A stretch of 63,782 nt of DNA, counting the filler, from Folioceros fuciformis (lineage: Eukaryota): the NCBI GenBank assembly GCA_049999805.1. It is 13 parts of 13 records of this genome, joined end to end, with 100 filler letters (N's around TTAATTAATTAA, not from the genome) between each part and the next. Parts side by side here need not be neighbours in the genome. Positions count along the whole stretch, not along the records: positions 62,764 to 63,782 come from JBNGIO010003268.1; 12 more parts are not named here. One strand, written 5' to 3'. Below are positions 9,980 through 63,782 of this stretch, piece after piece. Both the position numbers and the translations under genes were made by a program. Below the pieces are notes generated by a model. It was not told where the DNA came from, did not search any database, and saw only the letters and a list, made by a program, of their open reading frames with translations. Every line of letters starts with the position of its first letter. Position 1 is the stretch's first letter.

Positions 9980-11430
9980 TCACTTGCAAACAAGAACAAC
10001 AGCTATCAAACCTATCTCGACCTTACACAAGCCCTCCTTTTCCCGTTCAGTGATAATCTCCGCAATTCTAGAGAATAACAAGTTGGTGAGGGGCAATCCG
10101 AGGAGCATCTTCACGAGATTGTTGATCATGGATCTCATCACATTGCACCAGAATTTGCCAAACCTAGAATGATCAGTCTTGCACGTCTTCAATAATTCTG
10201 CAGGGTAAAAGGGGACGTCATCGAAATACTCCATGCGTCTGATCTCAAAGCGGTTTGAAGTCAGACAGTGGGCGTTGGCATCCTGTATTGACTCCTTCAC
10301 CTCCTGCATCGTTGGTTCATACACAAGGACGTTGAATTCATCTGTGTCTTCTGAGTCGATCTCTCCCTGCAATGCACAGAAACGGATCCATCAGTGTATT
10401 GCCCTTAAGAAAACTGGACTGCACAAGATTTGAGCCAGAATTGGTCTCTCATAGCCCTACCTCCTTCACCAGTACGTTCCACGACTCCTCCAAGAACTTC
10501 AATGGGGCCATCTCACGTTGGCGGTTCTCAGATCTGCTTGACACAAGAAGCAAAAGCAAACCCCCAGGTGCCACTTCCTGTGCTCGGCACATCAGAAACC
10601 TGGTGAAATCCTTCTTGAACTGCTGAGCGTACTCTGTCACTGTCTCTGAAGTGGCGCCTGCAAGCCATATTCTCCCACGATTGAAAGCAGGGGCGTTGCG
10701 GTCCATCACAGGAGGAGGAACCTTATTAAGTAAAATCTGCCATAAGAGCCCAAATTGAAACCACTCCTCATCTAGAGCTCACAATCTGCGGTACAGTTAC
10801 AAGTGTACAGACCACAGAAAATGCGATTGCTGACACGAAGCTAACGAGGAGGATCAGTCGGCAGACTGTGAGTTGTACCTGAGACAGCCAGTGGAGGGCC
10901 AGAATTGATGTCCCAACATGTAGCATGTTGCTTGGGAAGAGCCTCTTGTGAAATGATCCCGGTACTCCGGCCACGAGATATCCATCGGCTGTCTTATCCA
11001 GAGCTTCGTCTCCAAGGCAGCTGGATGGCCTCAAGAGCTGGAACAGGTTATTGAAGTCGTTACCAGGCAGATCTGCGAGGAAAGCCATAACTTCAGGCAT
11101 GAGGGTCTTCACGGAGTCTTCAATTGCATACCGCCTCTTAATCGCCTCAAAGATGGTGCTCATGGTGGACATGGTGTTGGGACCGGAAGCGCCTCCGAAG
11201 TCTGCCGTATACAGGTTCGCACGAGGCTGATCTGGAGCATTAACAGGCAAGTCGTCCATTTTCTGTATTTCCTCGCAAAAGACATGCTTCACGAGATGGA
11301 AAGGGTGTGCCTGGCCCTGTGAACAACTGGCGTATCACCAAGAAGCGTTTCCGCTAATCCCCCCCCCCCCCCCCATTGCCAGTGCGTATGCCATATCCTG
11401 AGCCTCTCTTCACCCACAATCTACTTGACA
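9980..11430 (-). CDS. SABATH-family SAM-dependent carboxyl methyltransferase, 3 exons (about 11430-10879, 10721-10461, 10366-9980); 5' end uncertain or frameshifted
   Basis: Motifs ADFGGASGPNT, DLPGNDFNNLF, AGVPGSFHKRLFP, ALHWLSQVP, NRGRI, YAQQFKKDFTRFLMCRAQEVAPGG, D.FNVLVYEPT. Canonical phase-0 GT-AG introns at 10878-10722 and 10460-10367. The N-terminal YASCSQGQ matches the SYxxNSxxQ motif. Confidence 0.9.
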
Positions 11431-31479: not shown

Positions 31480-34400
31480 GCAGACTGCTAAGACCATTCA
31501 CCTTCTAAATCCATTTAGTTTTAAACCTCAACTTTCCCAAAGACCGTGGGCGTTCACCTACCCCAAGGGTAGGTGTGATTCCAATGTTCTTCATTCCCAG
31601 GAACTAGGAAACCCGCCGACTTCCACTCCTTCTGCTTGAATCGTTTCCAATAGGACTGCCTCATACCTTTTGCTGCAATCAATAGGTGCTCCTAGATGCG
31701 CCATAGCAGAGCTTTAGATGAGGCTGACACCGAACCTCCATATACCACAGAAGACCAGTTGACCCAAAGGTGGAAAAGATAAGAAGACCACAATAACCCC
31801 CAGCATTGTGACGGAAGTAGAGCTTTGCCCGATGTTGCATCCAACCCAAAGAGGGCAGTTTGTTTCGTGATCCTGAGGTTGGTGCTGGGAAGAATTCTAT
31901 GCAACCACCTGCCCACCTTACTCCATATCTCCTGGGCAAAGCTGCAGTGGAAGAACATGTGCTGACTGTTTGGAGCACCCGAGGAGCACAATCGACACTG
32001 GTCTTCTCCCGTAGCCACCAACAACCCATCCCATCGATCCGCATTAGGCAAATAAGCTTGAAAAAAACACCAAACTGTCGTCCTAACCTTGGCGGGAATT
32101 CCGTCCGTCTGACTTCCAAAGTAGCTTGATAGCTTCCTTTTGTCGCCGCACAGAAAGCTGTAGCTGGGGAGCCATTGGATGCCTTTGTCTGATTTTTGGC
32201 ACTCGCACCAGCCAGAGGAATATGTCGGCTATTAGGAAGTTGAAGAATGACCGAAGGCTGTCCGCCTTGCACCCTGGACGTCTGGGCCATTTGTAGAGAT
32301 CTGGTCTTAATGCCAAATCCCAATTCTCCGCAAGGCGGAACCAACATCGGACACCTGGTTTGTCCAAGGTTGATTGTCCACTAGGGCCTTCGAGTTGAGT
32401 GAACCACCGCCCTGCATGACCAGACTTAGAGAGGACCGTGATGGCCCGTAGTTCCCCTCTTCGGACATCACCATCGTTCTTGCCCTGACGTTCCAAAAGC
32501 CCTTCGGGCGACATGACCTTGAACGTTTGCAAGTTTTCTTTGTCAGCCGTACCTGAAAGCCAAATACCCCTATCCAATTCAAAGTCATCCTCCTATTCAT
32601 CCTCCTCAGAATCTGCGTCCTTACTACCCATGGAGTACGTATACAACCCCTCAGCGTCCAGGGAAGGTTGTTGCCTTAAAACCTATTGAACCTTATCCTC
32701 TAGTCCCTCTTGCAGCCATGAAAAAATGAGCCTAACATGTCTAGCTACTAACTCAAATTCTTCCTTGACCTCCGCCACCTCTTTCCAACGGGCCTCTGAT
32801 CAGTTCCATAAGTGACCAAGTTGGTTAACTCCTTTCCGACACACCAAACCGAAGATTTGTGACCGATATACCCTAGCCCTAAATTCTTGAGCCCACAGTC
32901 TTGAGAATCCTTGCAAAGGCACTCCCAGAACGTCATCAACCTACATGGGGTTACCTGGGACAATGTACCACTTGACTTCTAAGTAGCCGCTCTAGATTGA
33001 CTTGAAGAGTGAGAAGCACTCTACAGTACTTGTCTGCAAGGATGTTGTCAATAGATCTCCTTCCCTGAGGAACAGCTTGCGTGCACTCCAGATGCTGTGT
33101 TAGCAGACTCTTCCAAGGGTAGTAGGCAAGATCCACCGCCCTGACAACCCATTGAGCATGCAAGACTTTCATCTTGGCAACCGGGTCAATCACCCCTAGG
33201 CCCCCCAATCATCGTGCCTGAATAATGTGATGCCAAGCCACCTTAGAGCACCTCGCTGAGTTGTCCCCCGCACGGTTCCACAGGAATGAGGTCAACATCT
33301 GTTGCAGCCGTTTCACCTCTGCATTGGAAGGGGCCCACAAGAACAAATAACACCAAAGAGAGGCTATTAGGATATGGTTAATCACCACCAACCTTCCTGC
33401 CAAGTTAAGTTCCAACATCTGCAAGCTCACCGCTTTACGAATGAATATGAGGAACGCATACTTCCCTATCTCGCCGTTCTCATCCCCTTCATGGAAGGGA
33501 AGTCCCAAATACTTGTGAGTGGACCCTTGCGACACCCTCAGGATATGGCAGATGCATCAAGGCAGCTCCCCTTCTGTGTGTAGACACATCATGCGGGTCT
33601 TCCCCCAATTAACCTTGCAACCCAACAACTCCCCAAAAGCCTCAACCTTCCGGAGCAAAGCATTCAAAGAGGTCTCCTCTGCCGAAGAAAAATTAAGGGT
33701 ATCATCTGCAAACGCCGAGACCCTTAACTGCGATCCATCTGGATTGTGAACACCCTTGACTGCCTGATCTTGCTTAACTGCCCGGAGGAAGAAGTCATTC
33801 ACGATAATAAATAAAAATGGAGCCAGGGGGCACCCCTGACGTACCGACCGATGAATGCCAAAACGCTCCGTAAACGCTCCATTAATGGCTACCTTGGCTC
33901 CTGCATCTTCACACAAAATGGCAAACCCCCCACAGAAGTTATTCCCAAACCCAAAGCTACGCAAGCATCTCCACAAAAAGTGCCACTCAATGGAATCATA
34001 CGCCTTGCAAAAGTCTAGGGAGATGAAGACAACAGCTTTCTTCTGAACCTGGACATTGTCCTTAGCTTCCCGCAAGAGTAGAAGGTTGTCCAGAATGCAT
34101 CGATTTTGGATGAACCCCCTCTGCTCTTTCTCAATCCAATTGTCCATAAAAGGCTTGATGCAGTTGGCCAGTACCTTGGCTATCACCTTGTACGTAGTTG
34201 TAAGTAGGGTGATTGGGCGCCAATTGGAGATTGATAGACTGGCGTCTTGCTTAGGTGATGACCCCCATGTTGAACCAACTCCCCATGCTGCCCTCTTCCC
34301 AGATCATGGCCATGGCCTCCATGAATAAAGGCTCTATAAACTCCTAGCCCCAAAGCAGGAACTCGGGCGGGATACCATTGTGCCCTAGGGATTTATTCCT

Positions 34401-36108
34401 CGGCATCCCCTTAAGAGCCTGGAGTACTTCCTCAACTGTAGTCGGCTTATTCAATGCCTTGCGTTGGGCCTCGGACACCTTAGCCGAGAGTGATCCGTAG
34501 GAAGCTGACCACAGCTGTTCCCACCCCGCCACCTTCCCCACACTCGAGAAAATACCCACAAAGAAGAGGGTAATGAGCTTTTTTAAACCTTCCAGCGACT
34601 ATTGCATCACTCCTTGAGCATCTGGAAGAGCAGGAATTCTTGACCTGTGCCGGTTAGTAGCACCTTGTGGAAGAAGAACTTAGACGGGCCGTCCCCTTCC
34701 CTCACCCACTTGACCTTAGCCCTTTTAAACCAGCCTCTGGCTCTGTCTTCTTCCAACTTGGCCAACGCGCATTGTACCTCCGTTTTCTGGGCTGCTTCCT
34801 CAATTGTGAAGTCTCGCTCCTCCCCTTTCCTTTGCAACCAGCTTAGTTCCTCTCTCCAAAGCATTCTTGTTGACGCAACTCCTTCGCCCGTTGGACCCCC
34901 TGCCTCCTCAAGTATCTAGTTGCTTCTCTTTTAGCGTAGATCAATCTAGAAATAGCAGGCTCTTCCCCCGTTCTAATCCTTGCCAGATGTTTTTGACATC
35001 CTCAAACACCCTTTTCTCCTTGAGAAAGGACTTGTTCATTCGAAAGCTTTCCATATGCCTCCTTCGTCACCCCGAGTCCGGCGCAAGCCTCAAGTGCAGG
35101 CTAATTAGATGATGATCAGACAAGATCGTACCAGCGAGGATACTGTACGCGTGCACACAGGCCAACCACCCAGCAGGAACATAGAACCTGTCTAGCCTGC
35201 GCGCTCCCAAATTCTGCTGTTGTTGGTTAGTTCAGCTGATCTTCAAGGATTGCGGTTGACGATGCGCTGGGAGGGCTAACCACAAGTCCTGAACAGCCAA
35301 GACGGTATCTCTTAGTTCCTGCCAAGACATAGGCACCGACTGAATATCAACAGGGCTCTCCCCTCGGATATCCTCCCGCCTTTCAACAAAGTTGAAATCC
35401 CCAGCCAGCATCCACGGGATGTGCTCATCCAGATGTTCCCCCAACCTGCACCAGAGATTGCTTCAAGGATTGTGGTTGACGTTGCGCTGGGAGGGCTAAC
35501 CACGGGTCCTGAACAACCAAGATGATATCTCTTAGTTCCTGCCAAGACATGGGCACCGACCGAATATCAGCAGGGCTGTCCCCTCGAATATCCTCTCGCA
35601 TTTCAACAAAGTTGAAATCCCCAGCCAGCATCCACGGGATTTGCTCATCCAGATGTTCCCCCAACCTGCACCAGAGATTGCTCCTATTGGTGGCAGCATT
35701 GGGAGCATAGATGTTACATATGCCAAGTGGGCCTTGGGTTGTTTGCATCACCAGCCACACAAATCTTCCACCTTCATCGTGGCCCATCTCCAAGATATTG
35801 TGAGTGTGTTCTTGGTTTATAGTAATGGACACACCTCCCCGGGTTGCTGATACTCGCTGAGTCGAATGTCCCCCATTGTTTACATCTTCTGCTCTAGCTG
35901 CCACCCATTCTGTTCTACTTGGAAGGAAAACCTTCTTCACTCTCTGGATATGCTCCGTAGAAAGTTTATGCTCCTGTAGGCAAACAATATCCCAAGTGAC
36001 CTCCTTTTCTAACAAGTGTTTTAGTCTCCTACACTTCGAGGCCGTCTTTGACCAACCCCCTAAGCCTCTAACATTCCATGAAATGATTCGCAGGTGAGGC
36101 CCCCTCAT
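31480..36108 (-). mobile_element. L1-clade LINE ORF2 (APE endonuclease, RT, zf-RVT), disrupted
   Basis: SWNVRGLG, CLQEHK, NIYAPN, GDFN; RT LDFCKAYD, RQGCPLAP, FADD; GGLGV; C-terminal CRLC....SQHMFFHC. Short A-tract at about 31308 is a candidate 3' end. Confidence 0.93.
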
Positions 36109-36114
36109 AGTTTT

Positions 36115-39100
36115 TTAGGGTGTCAATACCCATTTATATGGTCTTGCTTGAGAATCTCTTGACCGCAGCAGGTTTGGGCACCCTAACCCCAGACATGAGC
36201 CTAGACCAAGGCAGCTGGTTATTAGCTTTAAGGTCAAGGGACATTCTTTGAAGTCGTTCAGATTTTCGTACGACAGGTGTACTCTTTTTGCCCCCATCTC
36301 TTGTGAACCTATCAGGGTCTCCCACTGCTATTATTGGGATCTAAGTCCAATTTTTCTCCCACTGCTATTATTGGGATCTAAGTCCAATTTTTCTCCCACA
36401 ACACGTCCAAGGACCACCTCCAATCGAGAGTATGCGGCATAGCTGGACCACATGCCTGTTTTAGATGGATATCAGCAAAATAATGCTCACCCATCTGAAA
36501 GACCCCACTGAAGAACCCCACCTCCTTGCCTTCCTCGCTCGCAAGAACACCTCCGGATGACAATGTTGCAAAAATCCTTTCCCGCTCTGAATGAAGTTGT
36601 TGCACTGGAATGAGGATTGGAAGCAGCTCTCCCTTGTCTCCTAACTTAACCAAGTACGAGTAAGTGTCTTGTATCTTACTCGTCACCGTAAGGTGAACTA
36701 AGAAAGGTTTGCCTTTCCACTTAGTTACTTTTTCCGTCGTCCTACTTCCCTGCCCACTCATCACTCTAGGATTCTCCTGCCCAGACACGTAGCACCCTTG
36801 TTTCACCATCATAGCCTGATCCCAGCTCTTCTCCCATGAATGACTTGGAGAAAAACATCCTTCATCCCAAAAAAAAACAGCCTGAACCTCATGCCAGACA
36901 GGTTCACCCTCTTCATCATCGTCTGCACACAGAGTTGTGAACAGGTCGTCCTCAGAAGCATAAATTGCATTCTCACGCATGATGGGGCTTCCGCCATCAG
37001 ACAACTCCTTTGTCAGACTGACTGAACCGTTTTCTACCTCCCTAGCGCTCTTTCTCTCCTCAGTACTGCGGTTCCCACCCCCTACCAAGGGAGCCATCAT
37101 CTCACCATTAGAGCATGGCCATCCGCTGAACCACCCTATTCACGGCTTTCCTTGCTTTGGCCACAGTAATCTGGTCCTGCCGCTTACACCTTGCTAACGG
37201 ATCTTCCGAGGTCTTGGTCCTCTTCCCCGCAGCACCCTCCGCGTTTTTTTGTTTGGTTGGTATCCAACCAGACACTAGCTCCATTAGCTCGGTTGGGGAA
37301 GCTAGAACCGATCTTACGGCCGGATCCAGCTCTCCAGCGGAGCCAGTTCCCCGCTGTTGTTCCACTAATTGGGAGGCCAATGCCAAATCACTGACTAGTG
37401 TTGAGTCCAACACCGAAGAACCGAGACACCTTTGCCCTTGGAACTTCAAAGCCTTCCCCACGCCCTCATCAATTGCCTCTGCAAGAAACCTTGGCCCTGG
37501 CCCCCGGCTCAAGCCCGGCGGCGACACCGACTCTGAGTCATGCACCCATACTCCCTGAGAAGGTGCAGCCGTTGTTGCTCCAGTCTCGGTATCAGAATTT
37601 GCTAATTTCCTTGTGGGCACCCTTTCTTCCTCCACAATCCTGGAGACAGGGGACCCTTTTAACCCACTCCTGTGGGCGATCCCAAGGCTAGCCTGAATCT
37701 CCCAGCCCCTGAGGATTTGCTGGTGTCCATCCTCGGAAGGTTTATCAGCTACTTCACCCACCACCCTTACCAGCGTTCCAGACCCCGGCTCCATGCTGCA
37801 GACCGAAGGCGGCTGCGTCTCCCAGCCTTGAGACCTGGACTCCTGAGCAAAGGGACCCGACAGTGTTCCTATGCCGGTGACCTCCTCTTCTAAACCCCTT
37901 GGAATGCCCAATGCCCCACCTCGTTCTCGGTGTCTGGGGGGCGTTTGGCCTCTTCAATCTGTTGTCCACCTTTGCACAGCTCATCCTGCACATCAGAGAC
38001 TAGTCCCTGTCCACAAACCTCTTCGTCCACCTGGTCTCCCACCATGACAGCTCCTAGAATTGCCCCAGAAGCAGCCCTGGACAAGAGGGAAGCGCCATGC
38101 AGGCTCACCCTTGGGGATGCTCCGACATCGGTGTCAGCGACCGAGGCACTGCCTAGAAGCGCACAATTCTCCCCCTCAGACCTGGATGCATGGTTTGTCA
38201 GCATCCCTTCCGCTTCCTGCCCACCTGAGACCACCGCTACCTTAGAATCAGCATCCATCTCCTCGTTTGCTAGGTGCTTGGCGGTGGAGCTTCCTTTCGA
38301 ATCCATCACATCACCCTGAACAACCCCGACTTGGACCTCACTTGCGCTGGGAACTAGCTGCTCATCCTAGAGCCCCCATCCAGATAGGAAATTCTTTGCA
38401 CCAGACTCAATAAGCGAGGCCTCGTCACCCCCAGCTGAATTCGGCGGCAACAGCGACTCTGAGCCGTGCACCCATACCCCCTAAGAAGGCGTGCCTGCTG
38501 TTGTTCCAATTTCAGTGTCGGAATTTGCGCACCTCCTAGTGAACGCCCTTCCTTCCTTCACAAACCTGGAAACAGGGGATGCTTTTAATCCATTCCTATG
38601 AGCGACCCTAGGGCTAGCCTGAATCTCCCGGCCCCTGAGGATTTGCTGGCGTCCACCCTCTGAAATCTTTTCATCTGCTTCACTCACCACCCTTACCAGC
38701 GTTCCAGACCCTGGCTCCATGCTGGAAATTGGAGGAAGCTGCATCTCCTAGCCTTGAAGCCTAGGCTCCTGAGCAGAGGGACCCGACAATGCTCCTATGC
38801 CGGCGACCACCTCTGTCACAACGCCTTTGTAAGTCCAATTCCCCACCTCGTTCCTGGCACCTCGGGGACGTTTTGCCTCTCCAATTTCCCATCCACCTAT
38901 GCACAACTCATCCTACCCTTCAGAGATCGCTCCCTGTCCATAAACCTCTTCCTCCACCTGGTCTCCCGCCTTGGCAGCTCCTAGAATTGTCCCAGAAGCC
39001 GCCTTAGACAGGAAGGAATCGCCATGCAAGTTCACCCTTGGGGGTACTCTAGTGACGGCGCCAGTGACCGAGGCACCGCCTAAGAGCGCACCATTCTCCT

Positions 39101-39777
39101 CCTCAAAATTGGATGTGAGATCTTTGAGCATCCCGGCCGCTTCCTGCGCACTTGTGGCCAACACTTCCGTCGCATCAACATCCATCTCCTCATTCGTCAG
39201 GAGCTTTACGGTGGAGCTTCTTGTCGAATCTTCACCTTGAAAGGCCCCGACTTGGATCTCGTTGGCGCTGGGGACTAGCTGCTCATCCTGGAGCCCCCGT
39301 CCAAATCGGTGAATCCCTGCCCCAGGCTTTATAAGCAAGATCTCTTCTCCCCCAGCTGAAGCATCCAAACCAACGGCACCTTGGCCACTCTCGCAAAACT
39401 TGCCACAGGCTTCATGACAAACTCCAACCCGCTCCAACCCCGCCTCCAGGAATGGGGAGGAAGCGCCTTGCAAGAAAGCCCTTGAGGGATCCTTAGCAAC
39501 TTCGAGCTTTGATTGTGCACCAACTTCCCAGCCCGCACCCGTGATGTTCAACAGATAAGAATCGCGTGATTCTTCATCCATCTGAGCCATGAACACTACC
39601 AGGAATTGCTTTGTCTGGTCCTCCATGACCTGCCCAACTGTGTACAGCGCCTCCATCTCCTCATCTTTCTTCCCCTCATACGCCTTGAGGTTAAAGATTA
39701 GGATCGAGGAGGCAAGGAGATCGAGATCGGGCAAGGCGAGAGTGAAAGTAGAAGAGATATTTTTATTTCAGACCATG
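36115..39777 (-). mobile_element. Decayed LINE ORF1 / 5' region with a large internal tandem duplication
   Basis: Long low-complexity minus-strand ORF fragments ending just before the ORF2 ATG (36108). A ~926-bp unit is duplicated at about 37520-38440 and 38446-39360. Confidence 0.6.
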
Positions 39778-39877: not shown

Positions 39878-39932
39878 CTATAATAACTAGCCGCAATTAT
39901 TAATTAGCACATATTATCCAACACTCCCACTT
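39878..39932 (-). mobile_element. PPT (AAGTGGGAG, 39932-39924) and start of copia 3' LTR (TGTTGG from 39923)
   Basis: Purine tract directly followed by TG, about 1 kb downstream of the RNase H stop. Confidence 0.75.
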
Positions 39933-40032: not shown

Positions 40033-40903
40033 GTGAGCATCGCCAGTGAAGATGCCACCGCCTGGTACAGACACCTGTATGAAAGCTCCCGAGCTGAGGT
40101 GCGCTGCTGCAATTTGTTTCTTGTTCTTGATCACCAGGTTCCTTTGCGAACTCATACAACGGGGGATTGGAAACCTGGACGGCCGCTGGGAACTACCAAG
40201 GAGTTTCTGGAGCGCAACAAACGCGGTGTGGTGCAGACTGTTTCCAACATGGCTGGTCCCTCTGCGCCTTAGCGACAGCCATCACCACCCCCTGCGCCTG
40301 TAGAAGACGAAGAGTTCGTGGTTTCGCCCTTTACCAGAGTGCTCAACTTGGATGTGGCATACTACAGTGACGGCTCCAAGAGCCGCATCCCGGTACGCCT
40401 GCCAAAGCCCAAGTGTCGTGGTGAAGAGACGAAGGTTGTGACCTATGGCACCCTGGAGTTCCCTTGCTCTCCGATCTGGTACAAAGCTTGGGTTGACTCA
40501 GAGGAACTGACGATGAAGAGGGTGAAAGTCCTCCGCTGCAGATGCTTTCCTGGGCATGTTGTTAGTCTGTACATTAAGATTACAAACCCCGTTCACTGCT
40601 TTTCACTACTACTGAAGTTGATGTCTTCAAGTTGCTTGTGGTTTTACTGACTGATCCCACTTGTTGTGGACAGAGTCCACTAGGCGTATCAGGGAGGAGT
40701 GGAAGATGTTGGAAGAAGCGAGAGCGACTGGTGATGAAGCCAAGTATAAAGAATTGTGCCGCCTGAAGCCTTGCAAAGACTGGGCGCCCGATGCCTCCTT
40801 CAAGACTAGAGATGAGTCTACCTTTGACACTGTTGAGGCTGGAACTGAGATAGTGTTAGATGTGATATCTGATTCTGATAACTCAGTCTCCTCGGGCTTT
40901 TAG
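40033..40903 (+). pseudogene. Antisense accessory ORF of unknown function inside the copia 3' internal region (disrupted)
   Basis: Lies between the pol stop (40915) and the PPT. Peptide blocks align with 62764-63706(-): GRPLGTTK, LNLDVAYY, PVxLPKP, ETKxVTxGTLxxPCSP, KRVKV..RCF.GHVVS, R..EEW. Confidence 0.7.
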
Positions 40904-40914
40904 AAGTAGATGGT

Positions 40915-43900
40915 TTACTCTGAATTGGATAGGAGTGCTTCTGCATCTCCTATGCCCAAACGTTGCATGTGCTTAAAGTGTAATTCTCTGCTTAAGGCTT
41001 TCGTCAATATGTCTGCTGGATTATCCTGCGTCGGGACATATTGTAAATCTATTTTGCCTTCATTCACGAGCCCCCGTATGTAGTGGTATTCTACCCCTAC
41101 ATGCTTTGTTCTCGAATGAAGAACTGGATTTCTTGCCAAGGCCATTGAGCCCTGATTGTCAGTATGTATAGTGATGCACGTTGGTATTTGAATACCTAGC
41201 TCCTTAAATAGCAACTGACACCAAACGATTTCCTTTGCAGCCACGGTCAGGACCCGATATTTTGCTTCCGTTGAAGACAGAGCAACTGTTGGTTGCTTTT
41301 TGCTTGACCAACACACTGGACCTGCTGCTATGGAAATCACATATCCTGAAACCGACTTTCTGCTGTCGATATCACCGGCATAGTCCAAGTCTGTAAAGAC
41401 TTCAAGGTCCAAGGGCTGTCCTTTTTGATGCTTATACGTAATCCCTAACTTAGATGTACCTTTCAGGTATTTGAATGCACGCTTAAGACTTGTCCAGTGC
41501 TCCACACCTGGATTTTCCAGAAACTGTGACAATACACTCGTAGTGTAAGCAATCTCTGGTCTTGTTGTATTACTGGCGTATATCAACTTGCCAACACCCT
41601 GTCTATAGGGTATGTTTTTCACTTGTGCCTTTTCGTCTCTAGTTACAGGTGACATGGTCTTGCTTAGTTTCTGACCAGTTGCCATGGGCGTTGATGCAGG
41701 CTTAGCATCCTTGAGGCCAAGCTGCTCAACACAATCCAAGAGGTAACGTGGTTAAGTCAGAGTCATGACCCGAGTCTTCCTGTTCCATTGGATGTGTATC
41801 CCTAGGCAACTCTGTAGGGGGCCTAAACAGGACATCTTGAATTTGGTGGCCAATACATCAGTTATACTTGTTATGAATGCCTGGCTGTTACTGGATAGTA
41901 TCAAATCGTCCACATAGACTGCTAGGTAGCATATAACCTCTCCTTTCAAGTATATGCACAAGCTGCTGTCAGCCTGGCTCTTTGTGAACCCAAGCTGTAG
42001 AAGTTCTGTGTCTAAAGCAGCATTCCATTTCATTGCTGATTGTTTTAACCCGTATATACACTTGATCAGTTTACATGCATAGTTTTCCTTTCCTTTCACT
42101 TCGTACCCTCGTGGTTGTTGCATGTATATCTCTGTATCAATCTTGCCATATAGGAATGCAGTTTTAACATCATACATCTGTATCTCATAATCATAGTATG
42201 TTGATATTGCAAGGAGGATACAAAGTGTGGAGAGCTTAACAACTGGTGAGAACGTTTCAAGATAATCCAAGCCAGGGATTTGAGAAAATCCCCTCGCCAC
42301 CAAACGAGCCTTGTACCGGTCAAAGGTACCATCCGCTTTGACTTTAAGTTTAAAGACCCACTTGCATGAAACCAGCTTTCTGTCAGGAGGTAACTCCACC
42401 AGTTCCCATGTTCCGTTTTCAATTAATGAGTCATATTCTGACTGAATAGCTTTCCGCCATCTTTGTGATCAGGTTGACGCAGTGCCTCTTCATATGACTG
42501 AGGCTCAATAGGATCAAGTGAACTTGCAGCGTTGACAAGCACATGAGAGGAAGATGGACGAAAGTCCAAAGCACGGTAGTAATCTGGAGGTTGACGCTGA
42601 CGGGATGGATACTGTGTACCGGGTTCTTCTGCAACTTGTGGTAGATCAGGTAAGTCAGCGTCTAGGGTAGGCTCAATGATATCAGCAACTTGTTCTTGAG
42701 GATGGTAGTCATGTGGATCCGAAGGATGATCTGGAACATCTGGCGGTACAGTTACTTCAATGGCATCATCAAGGCCAACAAGCTCAAAACCTGCAGGATC
42801 ACCTAAATCATCAACTGGATCTTCCCCCCCCACAGGGGCAACATCCTCAACGGGAAGAACTGGGGTGCTGTGATCAGTCTGGTCAAATTGCGAATCAGGG
42901 AAGGCGGATATGTCTGAATCATCAATGGAGGAATCCTTGGATGCTCCCACTGAAGACCAAGTGCGCCATTCAGCAAAGGTAATGCTTCGAGCATATACAA
43001 TCTTGTTTTTAGAGGCATCATAAAGCTTATATGCTTTAATGCCCTCTGTATACCCTAACATCAATAGTTTTTGAGATTTATTAAATAACTTTTTCCGTTT
43101 TTCCTTCGGGATAAAGGCATATGCGATACATCCAAAGATACGCAAGTGGAGTATAGAAGGCTTGCGCCCTGTGAACGCTTCATAAGGGGTAATAAGACCA
43201 ACTAACGAATTTGTAGGAAGTCTGTTTTTAAGGTAGGTAGAAGTCATAATAGCCTCTGCCCAGTATGGAAGAGGAAGCTGAGCATGATGAAGGAAAGATG
43301 ATGTCATCTCTTGCAGTGATAGGTTGTTTCGCTCAGCCACGCCATTTTGTTGAGGCGTGTAGATAACTGTAAGCTGGCGACCAATACCCTCAGCAGTACA
43401 GTAATCCCGAAACTCATCAGAGGTAAACTCTCCCCCATTATCTAATCTTAGGGTTTTTAATTGTTTGCCGGTCCATCGTTCCACATACTTGAGATACTCT
43501 TTAAAGTAGCTAAAGCATTCATCTTTGTGCTTTAGAATATAAGTTGTAACAAAATGTGTCTTATCATCTATAAATGTTAGGAAATACTTGCCACCACCAA
43601 TGGATGCTTGGGAGAGTGGGCCACACAAGTCAGTATGGACAAGTTCCAAGACATCTGAAGCTCTGTGTGGCTCTTTGTTCTTGAAGGCTGCTTGATGGCG
43701 CTTCGTAAGAGCACAAGACTCACATAGTGGAAGTGGCACAAGAGGACCTATCTGCCCATGCTGGTATAAATCACTTACAACTAGTTTTTGTAGCTTAACA
43801 GAGTGTGGATGACCTAGTCGTAAATGCCAAAGTTTTGACTTCTCTATCTGCTGTGCAGACACTTGAGAAGATCCTTCAGTCAAATGGGCATGTGGCTTAC

Positions 43901-44779
43901 GACTGTCTGTATGAAGACGAAACAAGTCTTTCTCTGAAGACCCAAAGGCAAGTATTTTCTAATGATTAAAGGCATTTAACACTTGACATTCTGTTTGAGT
44001 AAAAAGAATGTGACAGTGATTATCAGAATTCAACTTCCTTACGGAAATTAAGTTACGTGTCATGTTTGGTACGTAGTACACATCATGTAACACTAACACA
44101 TTTCCTGATGGTACTGACAGGTCTATGGTACCAATACCAGGAGATACAAAGGATCTATTATCCCCCAGGTATACATACTGATCCTTGACTGATCTGTACG
44201 TTTGAAATGCCTTTCTATCCAAGCATATGTGGGCAGTAGCCCCTGTGTCTAAATACCAGTCTATGGTATGTTGAACCTTTGTATGTGTTAACAAACAGGC
44301 AGGTGACAAGAACGAGCTTGTAGCAAAGACTGTTGTACCAACTGTGAGGGCAGAGGGGGTTGGTTGCTTCTTAATAACCACGTGAGTCTCAGCGCTGGTT
44401 GAACCCTCCTTGCGAGGAACACCAGCCTACTTTTTCCTGCACTCACGCTCCCAGTGACTAGGTAACTTCTTGCATTAGTTGCAATTTCCTGTCCTTTTGG
44501 GTTTTCTTTGACTGGCTCCACGTCCTTGTGAGCCACCTCCTCTTGAGGTACTGCCCCCACCCCTATTGTAGGGTCTTCCTCCTCCACGTCCTCAGTTAGA
44601 AGTGAAGAGGGCTTGCTGTTTACCAGTGCGTCTGCTTTGTGTTTTGTTGGCTTCCTCTTGCAATAAAGCTTCCACTAACTCTGCAAAGCTTGTTTCAGGT
44701 AGGGTTACACCTGAAGCCTTTGCAAGCTTTTCAGTCTGGAGCTTGGAGGCATTGAAGGATGTCACAAAGTGTGACCAAG
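40915..44779 (-). mobile_element. Ty1/copia gag-pol (gag C-terminus, PR, INT, RT, RNase H), lightly disrupted
   Basis: CKKLPSHWEREC knuckle, WYLDTGATAH, LWHLRLGHP, VHTDLCGP/DNGGEF/NGVAER, YVDD, RNase H SSTEAKY..DNQG..HSRTKH..ADILTK. Confidence 0.97.
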
Positions 44780-44879
44780 NNNNNNNNNNNNNNNNNNNNN
44801 NNNNNNNNNNNNNNNNNNNNNNNTTAATTAATTAANNNNNNNNNNNNNNNNNNNNNNNNNNNNNNNNNNNNNNNNNNNN

Positions 44880-46878
44880 GCTGCACAGAAGCAGGTCGGA
44901 GGCGCGTCCGGTGAGAGCCAGTCTGCTGGCCTGCTTCTCCGACGATTTCCGCCTGGCAGCGACCAAGTCCGACTCCGACCTCTCTTCCCCCTCTCCACCC
45001 AGGCATTCTCAGTATTCACTGGCGGAGGCTCAGGGGCCCAAGGATGTTGCTTCCAGGAAATCCGTGACCGGGACTGGCTCCGGCTCCGGTTCCGGCAACA
45101 GTCCACCCAGGCCTTCTGCGCACCGCAGGTCGCTCTCCTTCAGCTGCATGTCCAATGCGGGAGCCGCGGGGGACAGCCCCGACACCCACCACGGCCGGAT
45201 CCCGCATCTCCCGCTTCTTCACCATGTGGTGTCCCCTCCCCCTTCCCACGAACTCAAGTCTAATGCGTGGGAGCAGGGTAGCGCGTTGCAGGAGCTTCAC
45301 AACCAGGTAGTGAGGAAGGAAGTGTCCATGAGGAAGAGGAGCCCTGTGGACGCTTGCTTCAGACCTTCCAATGCCGATGATGACCATTTGGATGAGGATG
45401 CGATGCTAGTGCAGGATCATGTCAAAGAGAGCACCGATGTAGACAATTGTTGCGGCTTTAGGTTGAGCACGTCGTCGGGAGGCGGGGATGGGATAGCGGA
45501 GCCCAGTGCTGTGCTTTGGGAGAAGGGCTTCTCGTCGGCTACTACCAGTGAGGATCCGGAAACCAGTTTCTTCACATCTATCGAGGCCGACTCCGCATGT
45601 GTCACTCCTAGGAGCTCGAGGCCCGTGCCTGCGCCTGTGCCTGTACCTTTACCTGCTACCTTTACCGCCTTTCCGTCTGAGCGAGGGCAGGCCAAGTGTG
45701 CCAGGACGGAGGAGCCCTGGGAGGCATCCTTCATTCCCGAGGAGCGCGAGCTTTCTTGTCCCTCGTCGGACTCGGAGACGGACTCGGACATCGACATGCC
45801 AGCCGTGGAGTTCTCGGAGGCCATTAGTGCCTGGGATACTGACGACTCCACAGCTGATCGGAGCTCGGGGGAGGAGAGCCCCAGCCCCATCTCCAGCCCC
45901 GCTTCTTCTTGTCGCATGGAGCTGGCCGTGATGGTGGAACAGATGGACAAGGCTGACAGTCAGGATGCCGAGGATTACTCCACCCACGATTCTCTGGAGC
46001 TGGAGGAGCGAGGGCTCAGGATTAGGACACGCCAACCTCTGCAACGCGATGGCCGTGGGTTCCCAGAGGGCCAAGCCAGTCCTTGCGACTCCTCGGTCTC
46101 GTCCACAGGAGCAGTGTGCGAGGAGGTCCGTGCTCGGGAGCTGGAGCAGCAGATTATGTCAGTCAGCCCGCGCATCCGCATGTGGGAGCCGCTTTCTGTG
46201 GCAACCACCGATGGCTGCACCACAGAGGATGAAGAGGACATGGAAGTGAGTCCGGCGTACGGCTGGGAGGAAAGCTTGCTGGCCATGAGGAAGTGCAGTT
46301 TCTCGTCTGATGACGACTACTTCGTTCTCAACGACCTGGAGGCCCGCCAGGGACGTCATGTGGTGTCCCCGGACCAGAGTCCGGACAGGCTGGAAGTCCA
46401 TCACCTCAAAGCAAACAAGGCGAGAACCGGGAAAAGGGAAGGGAGCCTTGACAGGAGGAGGTCAAGTGCCAACAGACACACCAAGGCTGGTGTTCAAGCT
46501 AGACCACGGTTGGGATATTCAGCTATGAAGGAAAAGCAGACGCGCAGGGGAGTGAAGGAGTCTCACATGACGACCACGACAAGACACCAAGGCCCAAGGC
46601 CTTCCCCTTTATCGACTGCCGCCCAAATGCCACCTGACATTCTAGGGAAAGTGCGGGAAAGTGTGCCTGTAGTAACCCGCTCCTATGATCCCTACGGGGA
46701 CTTCCGGGACTCCATGCTGGAAATGATCGTGGAGAAGGAGATCCTGGATACACCGGACTTGGAGGAATTGCTACAGGCTTACCTTGCCCTCAACTCTGAA
46801 GAGTATCATGGACTGATCGTGGAGGTGTTCACAGATTTGTGGTACGAGATCTTCGAGTCTGAGGAATCAGGGTACTAG
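44880..46878 (+). CDS. OFP: OVATE family protein (transcriptional repressor); 5' end cut by spacer
   Basis: Open frame of more than 650 codons. C-terminal OVATE domain ESVPVVTRSYDPYGDFRDSMLEMIVEKEI...LEELLQAYLALNSEEYHGLIVEVFTDLW, preceded by a long Ser/acidic region. Confidence 0.9.
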
Positions 46879-47303
46879 GCTAACAACTATCGCTCACGCT
46901 AGGTTCTTCTGGGACTAACACTGATCGGATGAACTCTTTGTAGCTGTATCAGTATTGTAGCAAACAACTGAAGAGCTGTAGAAACATAACTCATCACCTG
47001 CCCTCTCGCCCGCCGCTGTGATGAGCTCTGTTTCTACACCTCACCAATTTTGTCTACAGTTTGAATGAATTGCGAACACTTCGGAAACAAATTGGTCTCC
47101 AGGGTTTGCTGCGTGAGACAGTTCCACACTTCTCCCCACCGCCAGGACAATCAAACCCAGTGAGGGAGGGTAGTCAAAGGGAAGGACGGCATTCATGGTA
47201 GTCTGGAGACCTGACGCGATTGCAACCAATTGATTCCTTTCTTACAAACCATGCCACTCGGCAGCCGAGGAGGCCCAGCAAGCAAGTCGTGCTCCTGTGA
47301 GCC

Positions 47304-50082
47304 ATGGCTGGTTGGCTCACCAGCGTACTGGGAAGAGCGTCAACCCATCTGGCATCAAGGAATCCAGCTTTGGGGCACAACCAAGTCCGGAGATACAGCC
47401 CCTTAGCAACTCAGCCGGGCCGTCCACGAGGATATCGATTCCGACATGGGTTGACCACTGAGGGGCGTCGCCAGGAGACTCTGTGGAGACAGTTTTTCCG
47501 GGACCCCAGACGTTGGAGGCATAACAGAAACAAGAAAACAATCCATTCGCCTGATTTCCGGCACAGAAAGTCCCAGGACGGACTCTGGTTGAGCGATGTC
47601 CACAAGCCCCCTTAGGTGGATGCACAGCTTGCTGCTCTGGATATGGAAAGGGTTCGCGTGGTCTCCGACATTCGGCGGTCACCGGACGACACTGTCTTCT
47701 CACAGGCTTGCAGACGGCTACAGGGGCGTGACAGCAGAAACCGTACGGAAGCTATGCCTTGAGGGGCACCTGACCGAGGCTGTCGAGGCTCTGGAGGTTC
47801 TTGTGCAGACAACCTGTGCCATGTCCAAGTCTCTATTTTACACAGTCCTGATGAAATGTGTTGCGAAGAAGGAGCTTGTTCTGGGTAGCCGCGTTCATGA
47901 TTGCACGGTGGTAAAGGGTTTTACCAGTCAGACACTTTCCTGGGTTTTCACATCCTGCGAATGTATGCTGCTCATGGCAGGTTGCGAAAGGCCAGGATTG
48001 TTTTTGAGGCTGTCGCCAAACCTGATTGTTTCACATGGTCTGCCATTATCTCTGCCCATGTTAAGCAAGGGCAAGATAAGCAGGCCATAGAACTGTACCA
48101 CAGGATGCGTAGGTCCGGTGTGAAGCCCGACGGGTATGTGTTTGTGGCAGCCCTTCAGGCTTCAGCAAGGGGTTCAGACCTGAAAACTGGGCAGCAGGTG
48201 CACGAGGATGTGTTGGCCAGTGGTGTTGAGGCGGATCTGTTCGTTTATAGTTGCCTGGTGGACATGTATGCGAAGTGTGGTAGCTTGGAAGATGCTCGGA
48301 GAGTGTTTGACAGCCTGGGGTACAAACATGTGGTGACTTGGACTGCAATGATCGCAGGGTATTCTCAACAGGGCATGGGGCAGGAAGCCCTTCGTCTCTA
48401 CAGTGCGATGCTAGAGGAAGTCATCGTCGTACCAGACTGCGTGACGTTCGTGTGTCTACTTCAGGCGTGTGCGAGTGTGGGTGCCCCAGCGTTGGAAAAG
48501 GGGGAGCAGCTCCATGCTCGGATAAGAGAACAAGGACGTGAAAATGATGTGTATGTAGCCAACAGTCTGGTGACCATGTATGCAAAGTGTGGCACCGTGA
48601 AGGACTCGCAAAGAGTGTTTGACGGACTTGGTCAAAAAAATCTGGTGACCTGGAGTGCCATGAGCAAGGTATTCCCAGCAAGGGATGGGGCAGGAGGCCC
48701 TTCGTCTGTACAGTGCTACGCAAAACGAGGGCATCGCTGAACCTGATTGCGTGACATTTGTTTGCCTCCTGCAGGTATGTGCAACTGTGGGTAGCCCAGC
48801 TCTGGAGAAGGGGAAGCAGCTCCATATGCAGATTAGAGATTAAGGACAGCAAGCTGACGTGTTTATAGCCAACACCTTGGTGAACATGTATGCAAAGTGT
48901 GGCAGCTTAGAAGACGCCCAAAGTGTCTTTGATGAACTTGTTCAGAAAGATGTGGTGACATGGACGGCCATGATAGCCGCATATTCCCAGCAGGGCATGG
49001 GACAAGAAGCCCTCCGCCTCTACAGTGCCATGATCGAAGAAGGCTTGACCGTACCCAATGCCATGACGTTTGTCTCCCTCAGACAAGCATGTGCAAATGT
49101 TGCAGCCTTGTATCTGGGAAGGCTGTTACATGTACAAGTTGTGGAAAAAGGGCTTCAAGCTGACGTGTTTGTAGCTGGCAGCTTGATTAACATGTATGGA
49201 AAGTCCGGGAGCATGGTTGAGGCACAGCAGGTTTTTGATGCGCTGCCCGAAAGAAATCTTGTGATCTGGAATGCACTGATTGCAGGATACGCCGGTCAAG
49301 GAGAGTCTGATCTCGTTTTTAAATTGGTCCAGAGCATGAGACAGGGTGGGATACAGCCCGAAGGCATCACATTCCTTAGTGTACTGACCGTCTGCAGTCA
49401 TGCGGGTAGAGTGAAGACGGAAGACCACTACACATGCACGGTAGATCTCCTGGGCCGAGCAGGACAACTGAAAGAGGCACTAACTTTGGCAAGGTCAATG
49501 TCTTTAGTGCCCGATACTGTAGTTTGGCAAACATTACTGGGTGCGTGTCGAAAATGGAACGACGTCGAGGTGGGACGTCATGCCTTCAACGAAGCTGTGA
49601 AGCTAGAAAAACAAGATGCTGCCGCGTACGTGTTGATGGCAAACATTTACACCTGTTCCCAGTTGTGTCAGCAGGCAGAGGAGATGCAGGCGAGGAGAAA
49701 GAGAGTGAGGTCATGGAAACAGCCAGTTCAGAGTTGGTGGGGAGATGAGGATGAAGGGGTGCATAGCTTTTTGGTTGGGCATAAGAAGCACCCCCGAAGT
49801 CAAGCAAGGCTGAAGCAGGTTTTGGCTAAAACGAAGAAAGAGGGACCAGTGCTGCAGCTACACTCCTTACCGGCTCACACACATTTTGACAGAAATCTAT
49901 GCAGCCAAAGCAAGAAGCTGTCTACAATACATGCCCTAAACTTCATGTTCCATAGTCGGTGTGAGAAATGTGCGGATCTGAGTCGTTTGTCACGCTCCCA
50001 CGACATGAATGTGGGAAGGATTAAATCGAACTTTCAACTTAAGTTAGGCACGTCGTTTACATCTGTGCGTGCTGAGCCGTAG
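47304..50082 (+). pseudogene. PLS-E(+)/degenerate-DYW pentatricopeptide repeat gene with an N-terminal OSB-type PDF motif; disrupted
   Basis: PLS repeats (LVDMYAKCGSLEDARRVFD, VVTWTAMIAGY, PDCVTFVCLLQACA), HYTCTVDLLGRAG, W.TLLGAC, AYVLMANIY and a PG-box variant. Stops at 47613 and 48841, and frameshifts near 47700, 47920 and 48670. Confidence 0.9.
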
Positions 50083-51207
50083 ATGCTGGCTGTCTTTCGA
50101 GATTTGCTGAAGGCACGTTTAACGCTCCGACATAAACCCGCCCGTTCGCGTATCCTTCTGGGACAACAAACCTCTTCATCGGAGAGGAAATTGAGACATT
50201 CAACAGGATGAAGACGACCTGCATATGTGAAGGCAGAATATCCCACCTTCGAATGCTTCCGTTGGGCTCTGCGGCTGCCATCGTGCTATCAGTTCCCAAC
50301 CTTGTCCTCCCTTGTGTTGAAGTTTTTCACGGGATAGAAAAGGATTGGATCGACCCACGGCCAACAGGCCATGCGTGCACAAAACAAACTAGACTGTATC
50401 ACACAAAACAAACTACATCAGAGGAGAAAAACAATAGACTGTAACACAGCCTTCCCCTCTGAAATTATCTACTGTGTCACCACCCTCTTCTATGTTCAAA
50501 GACGAGACAGAACTAGGGCTCTAGCAGTGCTCTCCGCATCCTCTGCACCCAAATTACAACTAGAGCCATGCCTGTGTTGTCCGAATCGACTGTATCTAAT
50601 TGTCAAGGCCGCCATACACGATACCCGCAAACGAATCCACACGCCCTCAATCTAGTTGTCATTTAGGCGATATCCACAACAGCACACAAGCCGGCCTCCA
50701 AGCTGCATTGATGCCCAATGCTGGTCACTGAATACAAGGTCACACTCGGAGTGACGACGGATCACAAGATAACACACGAAGTCAACACGGATCACATGGC
50801 GACACAGAAGGAATCCTTGTCATGTAGTGACCCCCTTCAGACCCCTCAGAAAGATCCCACAAGGGTACCATGTTGTCCCCAAATGGCAGATTCAAAGCTG
50901 CTCCAGACGCACGGGCGGTAGCTAGCCATCAGGCTATAAGCCATGACAGTCTACAGGCTGCTCGATAACAAGACGTTCTGAAATGGTCTGTAGACTGCGC
51001 CTCTCACACATTGCCCAAAGGCAGTCGCCTCGCCAAGGCTGCGGAACCTGCAGGACTGACGCGAGCGCCAACCGCTCCCCGTCTCACACTTGTTCTCTAG
51101 TTTATAATATGTCGCCAGGTCTTTTTGTGTAACATTGAAGCTACAAGTAGCTGGCGAAGCAAAGAACTAAAAATTGCTGGCATTTCGTGACCTTCTGGAG
51201 AGAAACC

Positions 51208-51849
51208 ATGGTGCAGCAGGAGGGTACAGTGGCGCAGGCCTACGTCCGTGAGGTCACACGGCAAGACGTGAGTATCCTTGCCAGCCTCGTTCGGCAGCTA
51301 GCTGTTTTCGAAAACCTCACCGACATATGCACCTTCACGGATGACGGGTTGGAGGAGGCACTGTTCAAGCTGCCGCCCTACCAAGGACCAACTGCGCTGC
51401 TGCTGGAGGTGAGCAGGGGCACTCCTGCCTTGGCTGCTACCGATGCATCCGTCTCGGAGGGCTTCCAGGCGGCGTCTCACGAGCTTGAGTTGGATGCGCC
51501 AGTAGCGGATGCGGAAGAGGAGGAGTTCCGGTCCGCAATCTACCCGGACCGCGTTGTAGTTGGCTACGTGCTCTTCATTCGCAACTTTTCCACTTTTCTA
51601 GCTAAGAGTGGATTCTACATCGAGGACATCTATGTGCGGGAGCCCTACCGGAAGAAGGGCTTAGGTACCATTCTCCTGCGCACGGTGGCAACCGAAGCCT
51701 TGAAGCACGGGGCTGGGAGGGTGGAGTGGTGTGTGCTGGATTGGAACGTGAATGCTATCAAGTTCTACGAAAGCATGGGAGCCGATGTTTTGCCCGAGTG
51801 GCGCATTTGCCGTCTTACTGGAGATAAACTGAACGCATACTCCGGATGA
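51208..51849 (+). CDS. GNAT N-acetyltransferase, NATA1/diamine-acetyltransferase-like; intronless, 213 aa
   Basis: LVRQLAVFE, NFSTFLAKSGFYIEDIYVREPYRKKGLG, GRVEWCVLDWNVNAIKFYESMGA. Confidence 0.92.
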   Translation: MVQQEGTVAQAYVREVTRQDVSILASLVRQLAVFENLTDICTFTDDGLEEALFKLPPYQGPTALLLEVSRGTPALAATDASVSEGFQAASHELELDAPVADAEEEEFRSAIYPDRVVVGYVLFIRNFSTFLAKSGFYIEDIYVREPYRKKGLGTILLRTVATEALKHGAGRVEWCVLDWNVNAIKFYESMGADVLPEWRICRLTGDKLNAYSG

Positions 51850-62763: not shown

Positions 62764-63706
62764 TATCAGCCTCCACTCCTCACTGAGCCTCTGGGCAGAC
62801 CCTGTATTTACAGCCAAGAAGATATGTCAGCAGGTTCCAAAGATCACGGAAACCTGCAGACAGTGGTCAAGAAATATCAAAGCACAAGGAAACCTGTAGG
62901 AACAGCAACAACAAAAAGAAATCAAAGGCAGGGGCTTACTGTAGAAGCTCACAACATGGCCTTCGAAGCACCTGCTTTGCTGCACCTTCACCCTTTTCAC
63001 CCTCTAAGCCAACCCAGACTTTATATCAGACAGGAGAGCAAGGATACGCAAGTGTGCCACAGGTCACGAGCTTGGTCTCAGTCTGACAGTTCACAGGCTT
63101 GGGCAACTTCACAGGAAGGTGACTGCTTTCAGCATGATGGTAGTAGGCGACATCTAGGTTCAGAGTCCTGATGATGGGCATGACTTCGTCACTCTCGCTG
63201 GACTCTGGCAGTGTCTTAGGGCGCGGCTGCAAGTCGGACGGACCAGGCGCCTCAGCTTCAGTCTTCAGCGCAGCAAGTTTGCGCTTCTCCAGAACTGCCT
63301 TGGTGGTTCCCAACGGCCGCCCAACCTTCGGCTTGGTGATTGCAGTCACAGCTCCCATCTTCCCGCTACGCTCACTCTCAATGGTAGCTGTCCTTGGCGC
63401 GAATCGACCTAAAGCATCTCGGCGGTGGCGGTGCTTAGTGATCCGATCAGAATTCGAAGAATCAGACATGGTGGTGATGATGAGCAGCTTGGCGATCTCC
63501 AAGTCGAGAAGCTCACAGATGATTCTGACAATGAAGAACACCAAGAATATAAGGGTGGCACATCGTGGTACCATCTTTATTACGCCCAGCGGTGTGCGCT
63601 CCGCAAGATCCATGTGGCGGCCGTAAGTGGTTGGGGAGTAATCGAGAACTAGGTCTGAGAGTTGAAGTGCCGTTTGATGCAGGGGTACGAAGGGTAGCTG
63701 AAGCAC
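62764..63706 (-). pseudogene. Second, diverged copy of the retroelement antisense accessory ORF
   Basis: 226-codon open stretch with hydrophobic segment, RRDALGRF, GRPLGTTK, LNLDVAYY and PCSPV*YKVWV, continuing as VKRVKVQQSRCFEGHVVSFY; candidate intron 62939-62802. Confidence 0.7.
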
Positions 63707-63726
63707 ATGTTTGAATCATCACCAGC

Positions 63727-63782
63727 AAGTGGGAGTATTGAATGAAGGATGTTTAATTAGTATATGCTGGTTATGATTAGTT
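63727..63782 (+). mobile_element. PPT (AAGTGGGAG) and start of 3' LTR of a plus-strand LTR element
   Basis: CATCACCAGCAAGTGGGAG|TATTG matches CATCACCAAGTGGGAG|TGTTG at 39939-39919(-). Confidence 0.65.

Follow-up and report, generated by a model that had tools for sequence, protein, structure and literature searches.

Antisense open-reading frames behind pol (aORF-3R or eORF-3'R) have been described mainly in the Ty3/gypsy retrotransposons Retand, Grande (gene23), RIRE2 and Ogre, and own antisense transcription has been reported for Grande and Retand (PMC7264820, PMC11963269). For Ty1/copia, REXdb records such 3'R ORFs in 1% of SIRE elements and dashes for most other lineages, with Bianca and Ikeros ambiguous; it counted ORFs of at least 250 unspliced codons (PMC6317226), and would therefore miss most genes of the kind described here, as can any survey requiring 250 unbroken codons. 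SIRE, itself Ty1/copia, has an additional ORF downstream of pol, and its polypurine tract (PPT) recurs in exact copies in the linker between pol and LTR (PMC2829016), env-like ORFs often have transmembrane segments (PMC7264820), and PPT copies in pol, near the middle of the element, are known in Ty1 (PPT2), HIV-1 and Arabidopsis EVADE (PMC7197481, PMC2829016). Among deltaretroviruses, HBZ of HTLV-1 and APH of HTLV-2/3/4 are accessory proteins made from a spliced antisense transcript from the 3' LTR (PMC10186651). How the antisense extra ORFs of LTR retrotransposons arose and what they do is an open question, and a 2020 review asks that antisense and spliced transcripts be looked for (PMC7264820). 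Our literature search, mainly of openly accessible papers, found no intron-containing antisense gene in a copia element (PMC12477816 concerns DNA transposons and has no bearing); antisense ORFs as such are known in gypsy.

Here we present such a case from Folioceros fuciformis, a clear one in that it combines a conserved intron, a copia host and a spliced product. The account that we favour, and hold to be highly probable as a whole, is that of a true intron in a conserved extra gene of copia elements. On this account the gene occupies the antisense strand between pol and the 3' LTR, is transcribed separately and spliced, and probably specifies an accessory protein that is anchored in a membrane, binds nucleic acid and would act in trans. 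Like the aORF-3R of Retand and Grande, the gene is conserved, runs antisense in the space between pol and the 3' LTR and has a transcript of its own, but its host is Ty1/copia whereas theirs is Ty3/gypsy (Tat), the exon-1 part of its product has no Pfam match to TRP28 (PF04195), and it has a spliceosomal intron, whereas PMC11963269 never uses the word 'intron'; the gene works like the Retand/Grande aORF-3R but is not a member. HBZ and APH are likewise spliced antisense accessory genes, theirs being nuclear regulators of vertebrate retroviruses, whereas the intron here is short, of plant type and placed in a dedicated region behind pol, and no sequence relation was found or is expected. The likeness to SIRE lies in the copia host, the extra ORF behind pol and the extra exact PPT copies; in SIRE, however, the ORF is sense, the PPT is AGGGGGAG and about four copies lie for the most part no more than 0.5 kb from a long LTR, whereas the present elements have an antisense ORF, AGTGGGAG as their PPT, LTRs of 200–270 nt and a single extra linker copy 750–1000 nt upstream, inside the intron. 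A further copy in integrase recalls the central PPT of Ty1, HIV-1 and EVADE, unlike which there is an additional copy in an intron of the opposite strand, where priming is putative.

Two copies of the gene in the window

The window, by which we mean the whole stretch of 63,782 nt that was analysed, is a string of 13 contigs with N44-TTAATTAATTAA-N44 linkers at all 12 gaps; features across gaps are not neighbours, and its two copies of the antisense gene are therefore not neighbours either. They belong to different subfamilies, with 57–61% amino-acid identity in exon 1, and we refer to them as the 63-kb copy and, at ~40–44 kb, copy 1.

In the 63-kb copy a sequence-only reading had proposed an intron on the minus strand at 62802–62939, and its donor, T-rich interior, CTGAC and acceptor all lie where they had been placed. 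The donor reads TAC A/GTAAGC at 62939 (the slash marks the cut), immediately preceded by the end of exon 1, ...HVVSFY plus A; the interior is 42% T with CTGAC at 62830–62826; and behind the TACAG/ acceptor at 62802 the sequence goes on with GG and SAQRLSEEWRLI as far as the contig end, which cuts exon 2 after its start (62764–62801, minus strand, S-x-x-R-L-x-E-E). The segment is a true spliceosomal intron, of GT-AG type, phase 1 and 138 nt long. Three YAG candidates stand at intron positions 46, 86 and 138, and the RNA-like contig described below uses 138, the last one, which that reading had also chosen. The three YAG/G sites within 62802–62939 seem to be due to an internal duplication.

Counted from its probable start ATG (63574), the coding sequence of exon 1 spans 62940–63574 on the minus strand; it is broken. 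It contains in order a predicted single transmembrane or signal-anchor helix (63506–63562, 19-residue hydropathy 2.5), a second Met (63469), the motif RDALGRF (63401–63421, matching the pattern RD-x-x-GRF), GRPLGTT (63302–63322, from a loose pattern), which we take to be AT-hook-like, and a conserved, predicted five-strand beta domain of ~75 aa (62941–63173), here interrupted. The 63-kb copy has a TGA at 63028–63026, common to all three copies of its subfamily, and, relative to its sister copy L002, an 8-nt deletion at 63002/63001. The terminal PPT of this element, AAGTGGGAG, is at 63727–63735 and the 3' LTR starts at 63736, both on the plus strand.

Copy 1 has its terminal PPT at 39924–39932 (minus strand), exon 1 at 40052–40573, the homologous intron of 100 nt at 40574–40673 and exon 2 at 40674–40903 (all plus strand), the last ending 11 nt from the stop of a Ty1/copia pol with PR-INT-RT-RH order and scattered stops at 40915–44426 (minus strand). 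What the sequence-only reading had said of this counterpart was borne out: TAC A/TTAAG stands at 40574, homology resumes after GACAG/ at 40673, and exon 2 opens with STRRIREEW, running for 75 codons to SSGF and a stop. The altered donor is indeed TT, and is common to all six close copies of this subfamily. Exon 1 is without the segment of the second Met and RD..GRF, which is also absent from the close copies that were read, and its helix is out of frame with the remainder; the subfamily nonetheless comprises at least six copies at 96–99% amino-acid identity, despite the TT donor and exon 1 deletion. Both copies of the gene in the window are coding-dead.

Conservation of the intron across the family

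Searching the assembly (87 Mb, 7240 contigs) with an 85-aa piece of exon 1 gave 95 matches at 93 loci, 30–99% identical. Of these loci 88 were examined and three dropped (L079, L089 and L093, where the match fell short of the exon end or ran into N), which resulted in 85 copies in 31 subfamilies (80% DNA linkage), some perhaps being assembly duplicates. One base past the final Y codon the donor dinucleotide was GT in 73 copies, GC in 2, TT in 6, AT in 3 and GG in 1; 29 of the 31 subfamilies include a GT or GC donor, and GTRAG stood at this anchor in 70/85 copies against 0.3% of flanking positions. Exon 2 starts were placed by a peptide score blind to AG, which located them in 75 copies, the other ten being interrupted or truncated; AG was found at the acceptor so placed in 66/75, against a background of 9.5%, and the non-AG acceptors included AA in seven copies and a deletion across the site in L019. 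Both hallmarks of U2-type introns, a GT(R)AG donor and a YAG acceptor, are thus present, in a pattern far beyond chance.

Intron lengths varied from 76 to 215 nt, and 61 of 75 were not multiples of three; 13 of the 14 that were contain a stop, and in just one of the 75 copies is the frame open through the unspliced intron. A GT and AG conserved over a variable length, and a frame closed between them, are what the sequence-only reading had led us to expect. Column conservation falls at intron position +6 and is back at -3, and alignments between introns of different subfamilies, with the PPT motif removed, gave a median of 18 against 16 in shuffles. CTRAY or CTRAG lies 18–50 nt before the acceptor in 21 of 28 representatives, a count without chance control. 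An independent sample anchored on RNase H (RH), with 47 further loci, added 13 copies of this first clade that contain the domain, with GT in 10 of the 11 reaching the exon end; its other loci were cut short, interrupted, or belonged to the second clade or the different-ORF subgroup described below. The broken splice sites (mostly) and many of the stops in L001–L094 are G-to-A changes (GT to AT, AG to AA, TGG to TGA), a type of change expected from deamination of methylated C.

A probable spliced antisense RNA

X1 is the one run listed with the same species label, consisting of 48.6 M letters of unstranded contigs whose RNA status is an automatic guess. A 1450-nt contig of X1 at depth 83, with one mismatch to the 63-kb copy, matches the window over 62764–63678 (gene on the minus strand), skips exactly the 138 nt of the intron, bounded by CT and AC when read on the plus strand, and continues in exon 2; no X1 contig lies over the intron. 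As the skipped piece reads GT..AG on the antisense strand only, the spliced molecule is antisense to gag-pol. The separately transcribed, spliced antisense mRNA that the sequence-only reading had postulated, and the removal of the segment between 62939 and 62802, are thereby seen in one contig of one run of guessed, likely RNA status. The contig includes the upstream ATG unspliced, and carries the TGA (63028–63026) and the 8-nt deletion; being transcribed from a coding-dead copy, it shows transcription and splicing, not protein. On the sister locus L003 the X1 contig extends 491 nt past the gene stop into antisense RNase H, and an unrelated copia RT/RH fragment there is mostly uncovered. X1 cover is absent for window positions 63679–63782 and parts of L003. 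A search of sequencing runs with the L041 subfamily had no RNA run among the matches listed, which is silent on expression.

Coding evidence and descent with pol

The gene takes up the ~1.1–1.3 kb that separate pol from the PPT, on the strand opposite to pol, an orientation kept wherever both are present, except at one rearranged locus. Exon 2, read in phase 1, stops after 46–99 codons and in most intact copies 9–26 nt from the pol stop, tail to tail with it. In 60 copies, dN/dS by identity bin (saturated bins aside, pairs being non-independent) was 0.13–0.45 over the final 70 codons of exon 1 and 0.12–0.19 over the first 12 of exon 2, and third codon positions varied most. Judged from these alignments, both exons are shown to be under purifying selection; the mirror frame on the sense strand gave similarly low ratios (0.34–0.62), and dN/dS alone therefore does not fix the coding strand.

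Across 21 subfamilies mean identity was 72% for RH and 40% for the antisense domain, the two sets of identities were correlated (Spearman 0.53, a value reached in 0/2000 permutations) and the trees are largely congruent; the gene has therefore descended with pol. Its protein is apparently not needed in cis, given the spread of the TT-donor subfamily and the TGA in 3/3 copies of the subfamily of the 63-kb intron. In L037–L041 and L044, which form the largest young subfamily, and in L056, L061 and L068 the hydrophobic helix has lost its frame, which likewise speaks against a need in cis.

The host element

The order PR-INT-RT-RH with RVT_2 identifies the host as Ty1/copia. Element structure was examined in 20 long stretches, seven of which have LTR pairs (92.6–99.6% identical, LTRs about 200–270 nt); six of these elements are 7.0–7.9 kb long and one, without integrase, 5.3 kb. 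A 5-bp target-site duplication was readable in five of the seven, one with a mismatch, the primer-binding site (PBS) TGGTATCAGAGC or a variant is present in six and the PPT CAAGTGGGAG in all seven. We take this PBS to match tRNA-Met (3'-end type). The closest public RT matches are at most 53% identical; the REXdb lineage Bryco (half-tRNA-Met PBS, ~5.3 kb) is unmatched, these elements being 7.0–7.9 kb with a PBS of the other type, and their size also differs from that of Lyco (4.7 kb). The LTRs of L097, L100, L104, L105 and L108 mostly start with TA, not TG, after the PPT, and two end with AA, not CA. At L004:1–1350 an integrase-like region is inserted in the 5' part of an antisense gene copy, and the Cys/His-rich segment in which it ends resembles, by eye, a PHD finger.

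Polypurine-tract copies in the intron and integrase

The commonest 8-mer shared between introns is CTCCCACT, found in 22/28 subfamilies, with CTCCCAC in 57/77 intron copies; taking one representative each, CTCCCACT was observed 20 times against a mean of 0.27 and a maximum of 3 in 1000 shuffles. On the sense strand of the element it reads AGTGGGAG, identical to the terminal PPT. The copy usually starts 17–25 nt before the acceptor, and 39–52 nt upstream of it in seven subfamilies. It is absent from 6/28 first-clade subfamilies and from 19/19 second-clade copies; the subfamily of the 63-kb copy is without it, and in copy 1 it is degenerate (40654–40662), being exact in 5/5 sister copies. AGTGGGAG also occurs within integrase at aa ~335, roughly halfway along the element (42944–42951, minus strand, in copy 1), where the codons GTG and GGA were kept in 13/13 and 12/13 elements against backgrounds of 24% and 30%. 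As these are synonymous sites and neighbouring codons vary, the integrase copy is likely a central PPT. The intronic copy would prime a further plus-strand start, so that one sequence would be used on two strands, which is testable via natural cDNA intermediates. We rejected the idea that an internal PPT makes an extended LTR, as 0/7 interrupted copies, inspected by eye, break there.

The predicted protein

Exon lengths of intact copies predict a product of about 240–320 aa. Among 29 subfamilies, a hydrophobic 19-mer (hydropathy of at least 1.6) is in frame in 20, the second Met is present in 22, the RD..GRF motif in 26 and the GRP motif (loose pattern), presumably AT-hook-like, in 20; the tail in exon 2 is charged. 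In the helix segment T is enriched at codon position 2 (0.31/0.58/0.28). A reading of this T-rich segment as a 5' intron was rejected, since the RNA contig spans it without gap and the T is codon-periodic. Two AlphaFold models (pLDDT 81 and 75) concur in five beta strands in the ~75-aa domain.

A Pfam scan of the exon-1 proteins gave no match, TRP28 (PF04195) included, and homolog searches, one with an exon-1 ORF and one that set an alignment of 25 sequences against longer proteins, found nothing credible. A profile run against 1.84 billion representatives gave five matches, all multi-stretch, and the three inspected were unrelated repeat proteins; the Atlas returned no match for the antisense protein, twice, which indicates neither absence nor novelty. 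Foldseek found nothing at E ≤ 0.001 in the PDB and viral libraries and VIA-align nothing at Z ≥ 5, the top rows holding a coronavirus M/ORF3a-like beta domain (Z 3.0–3.5, rmsd 3.7–3.9, 58–67 aligned) tied with unrelated folds. The product is probably an accessory protein that is anchored in a membrane, binds nucleic acid and would act in trans. Our weakest guess, and a doubtful one, is that it might serve as a tether between an inner membrane (nuclear envelope, ER) and the RNA, particles or cDNA of the element, and so aid nuclear entry.

Proposed mechanism and alternatives

The antisense promoter would lie at the 3' LTR/PPT, given that the RNA contig has its start 49 nt inside the PPT. In the genomic RNA, which is the other strand, the intron would read CT..AC, be invisible to the spliceosome and for this reason survive reverse transcription; it would be copied unspliced into every new insertion, where the antisense transcript from near the PPT/3' LTR would be spliced. 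The earlier proposal that an intron can persist in a retroelement if it is antisense to the genomic RNA holds in that this orientation is sufficient; it is not the only route, because packaging of unspliced genomic RNA lets sense introns persist as well, as in EVADE (PMC7197481). The presence of an intron also argues against ordinary mRNA transduction, which is sense and intron-less, as the origin of the gene. The intron may in addition give non-coding room for a sense-strand PPT, the same letters forming part of the antisense pyrimidine tract, while the two Met codons may yield a membrane-anchored and a soluble form of a protein that would act in trans during retrotransposition. The overlap of the RNA with pol may add silencing.

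Several other explanations bear on parts of this account. With the RNA status of X1 guessed and its joint standing without a DNA comparison, the joined form might be a genomic, intron-less retrocopy, and GT/AG what is left of a host gene that was captured and has ceased to be spliced. This is extremely improbable: X1 has 48.6 M letters against the 87 Mb of the assembly and leaves both the intron and most of the unrelated copia RT/RH of L003 uncovered, no continuous, intron-less exon 1–exon 2 peptide was found in 202 genomic loci (many overlapping), and the splice sites are conserved while the intron interior has diverged. A second question is whether the spliced antisense RNA itself matters, by forming dsRNA with the genomic RNA (including ~490 nt of RNase H) and so limiting copy number, with the protein secondary. 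The 491 nt of antisense pol in the X1 contig, its derivation at depth 83 from a coding-dead copy and the amplification of subfamilies with dead ORFs all fit this reading, and a copy-number-limiting mechanism has been discussed for such antisense RNAs (PMC7264820); we nevertheless judge it improbable, as the codon-patterned purifying selection in both exons, the phase-1 junction fixed across two clades and the codon-periodic hydrophobic segment call for a protein, although RNA and protein roles can coexist.

As to the protein, it is possible, and about as likely as the membrane tether, that it is a nuclear transcription regulator or anti-silencing factor, like gene23 of Grande or HBZ/APH, made mainly from the second Met and without the anchor. 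The second Met occurs in 22/29 subfamilies together with basic and AT-hook-like motifs in the family, the frame stays open from the second Met to the donor in subfamilies that lose the helix frame, and a nuclear location has been reported for gene23 (PMC7264820). Yet the helix is in frame and codon-periodic in 20/29 subfamilies and the X1 contig retains the upstream ATG, unspliced; this alternative moreover concerns function alone, the intron and the gene being common to it and to the account that we favour. For the intronic AGTGGGAG, the usual start 17–25 nt before the acceptor is where a pyrimidine tract would be located, and the octamer could be an antisense splicing signal (branch site or pyrimidine tract) merely resembling a PPT. 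We regard this as rather unlikely, since it matches the terminal PPT octamer exactly and recurs at synonymous integrase sites, lies 39–52 nt upstream in seven subfamilies, often has a separate CTRAY just upstream, and in the different-ORF subgroup stands 46–53 nt from where pol ends and not near the probable acceptor; introns without it, moreover, are spliced, as in the X1 contig. A true intron in a conserved antisense copia gene, with PPT copies in the intron and in integrase, is the reading that we carry forward.

Wider spread in copia elements

A second copia clade (RH support 100/97) has a version of the domain of its own, a search with which gave 35 matches. The RH tree (98 columns) has an open fork that neither joins nor separates the two clades, and their domain profiles align with each other (hhalign 94%, E 1.3e-7, 58 columns). 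At 19 second-clade loci the intron has the same codon and phase, with GT in 18/19, AG in 19/19 and lengths of 69–85 nt. This clade (L184–L202; G000:C4891 and others) also has at least two further upstream candidate introns, with candidate donors about 350 and 600–700 nt before the exon end in three to four of five copies, by eye.

A subgroup nested in the first clade (L149–L153, L155 and L156; e.g. L151:617–1177, minus strand) carries instead an apparently unrelated antisense ORF, with a hydrophobic helix followed by a helical region ending FP..R[TNS] and a phase-1 donor of GTAAG type (GT in 6/7). A Pfam scan of this different ORF gave no match. The subgroup suggests an exchangeable cargo slot. 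From the sequences at hand we would tentatively go further, while rating the following composite below an even chance: an ancient intron-containing accessory gene, encoding a new protein family, may sit antisense in copia elements of two distant clades, one probably with at least three introns, and in a third group an ORF unrelated to it but laid out alike may have taken its place; its intron would be both spliced and host to a working plus-strand primer, its protein would be the membrane-anchored antisense counterpart of env-like genes, and the whole class would have been missed by ORF-length surveys.

Other contents of the window

Window positions 44836–51849 and 10768–11334 hold genes for an Ovate-domain protein, an E-motif PPR protein, a GNAT acetyltransferase and a SAM-dependent carboxyl methyltransferase. 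These host genes are those of a land plant, and the small assembly with its ~48% GC would fit a hornwort or spikemoss. A LINE-like element with endonuclease and RVT_1 lies on the minus strand at 31679–39767, in the region of which there is a ~930-nt tandem duplication at 37501–39360.
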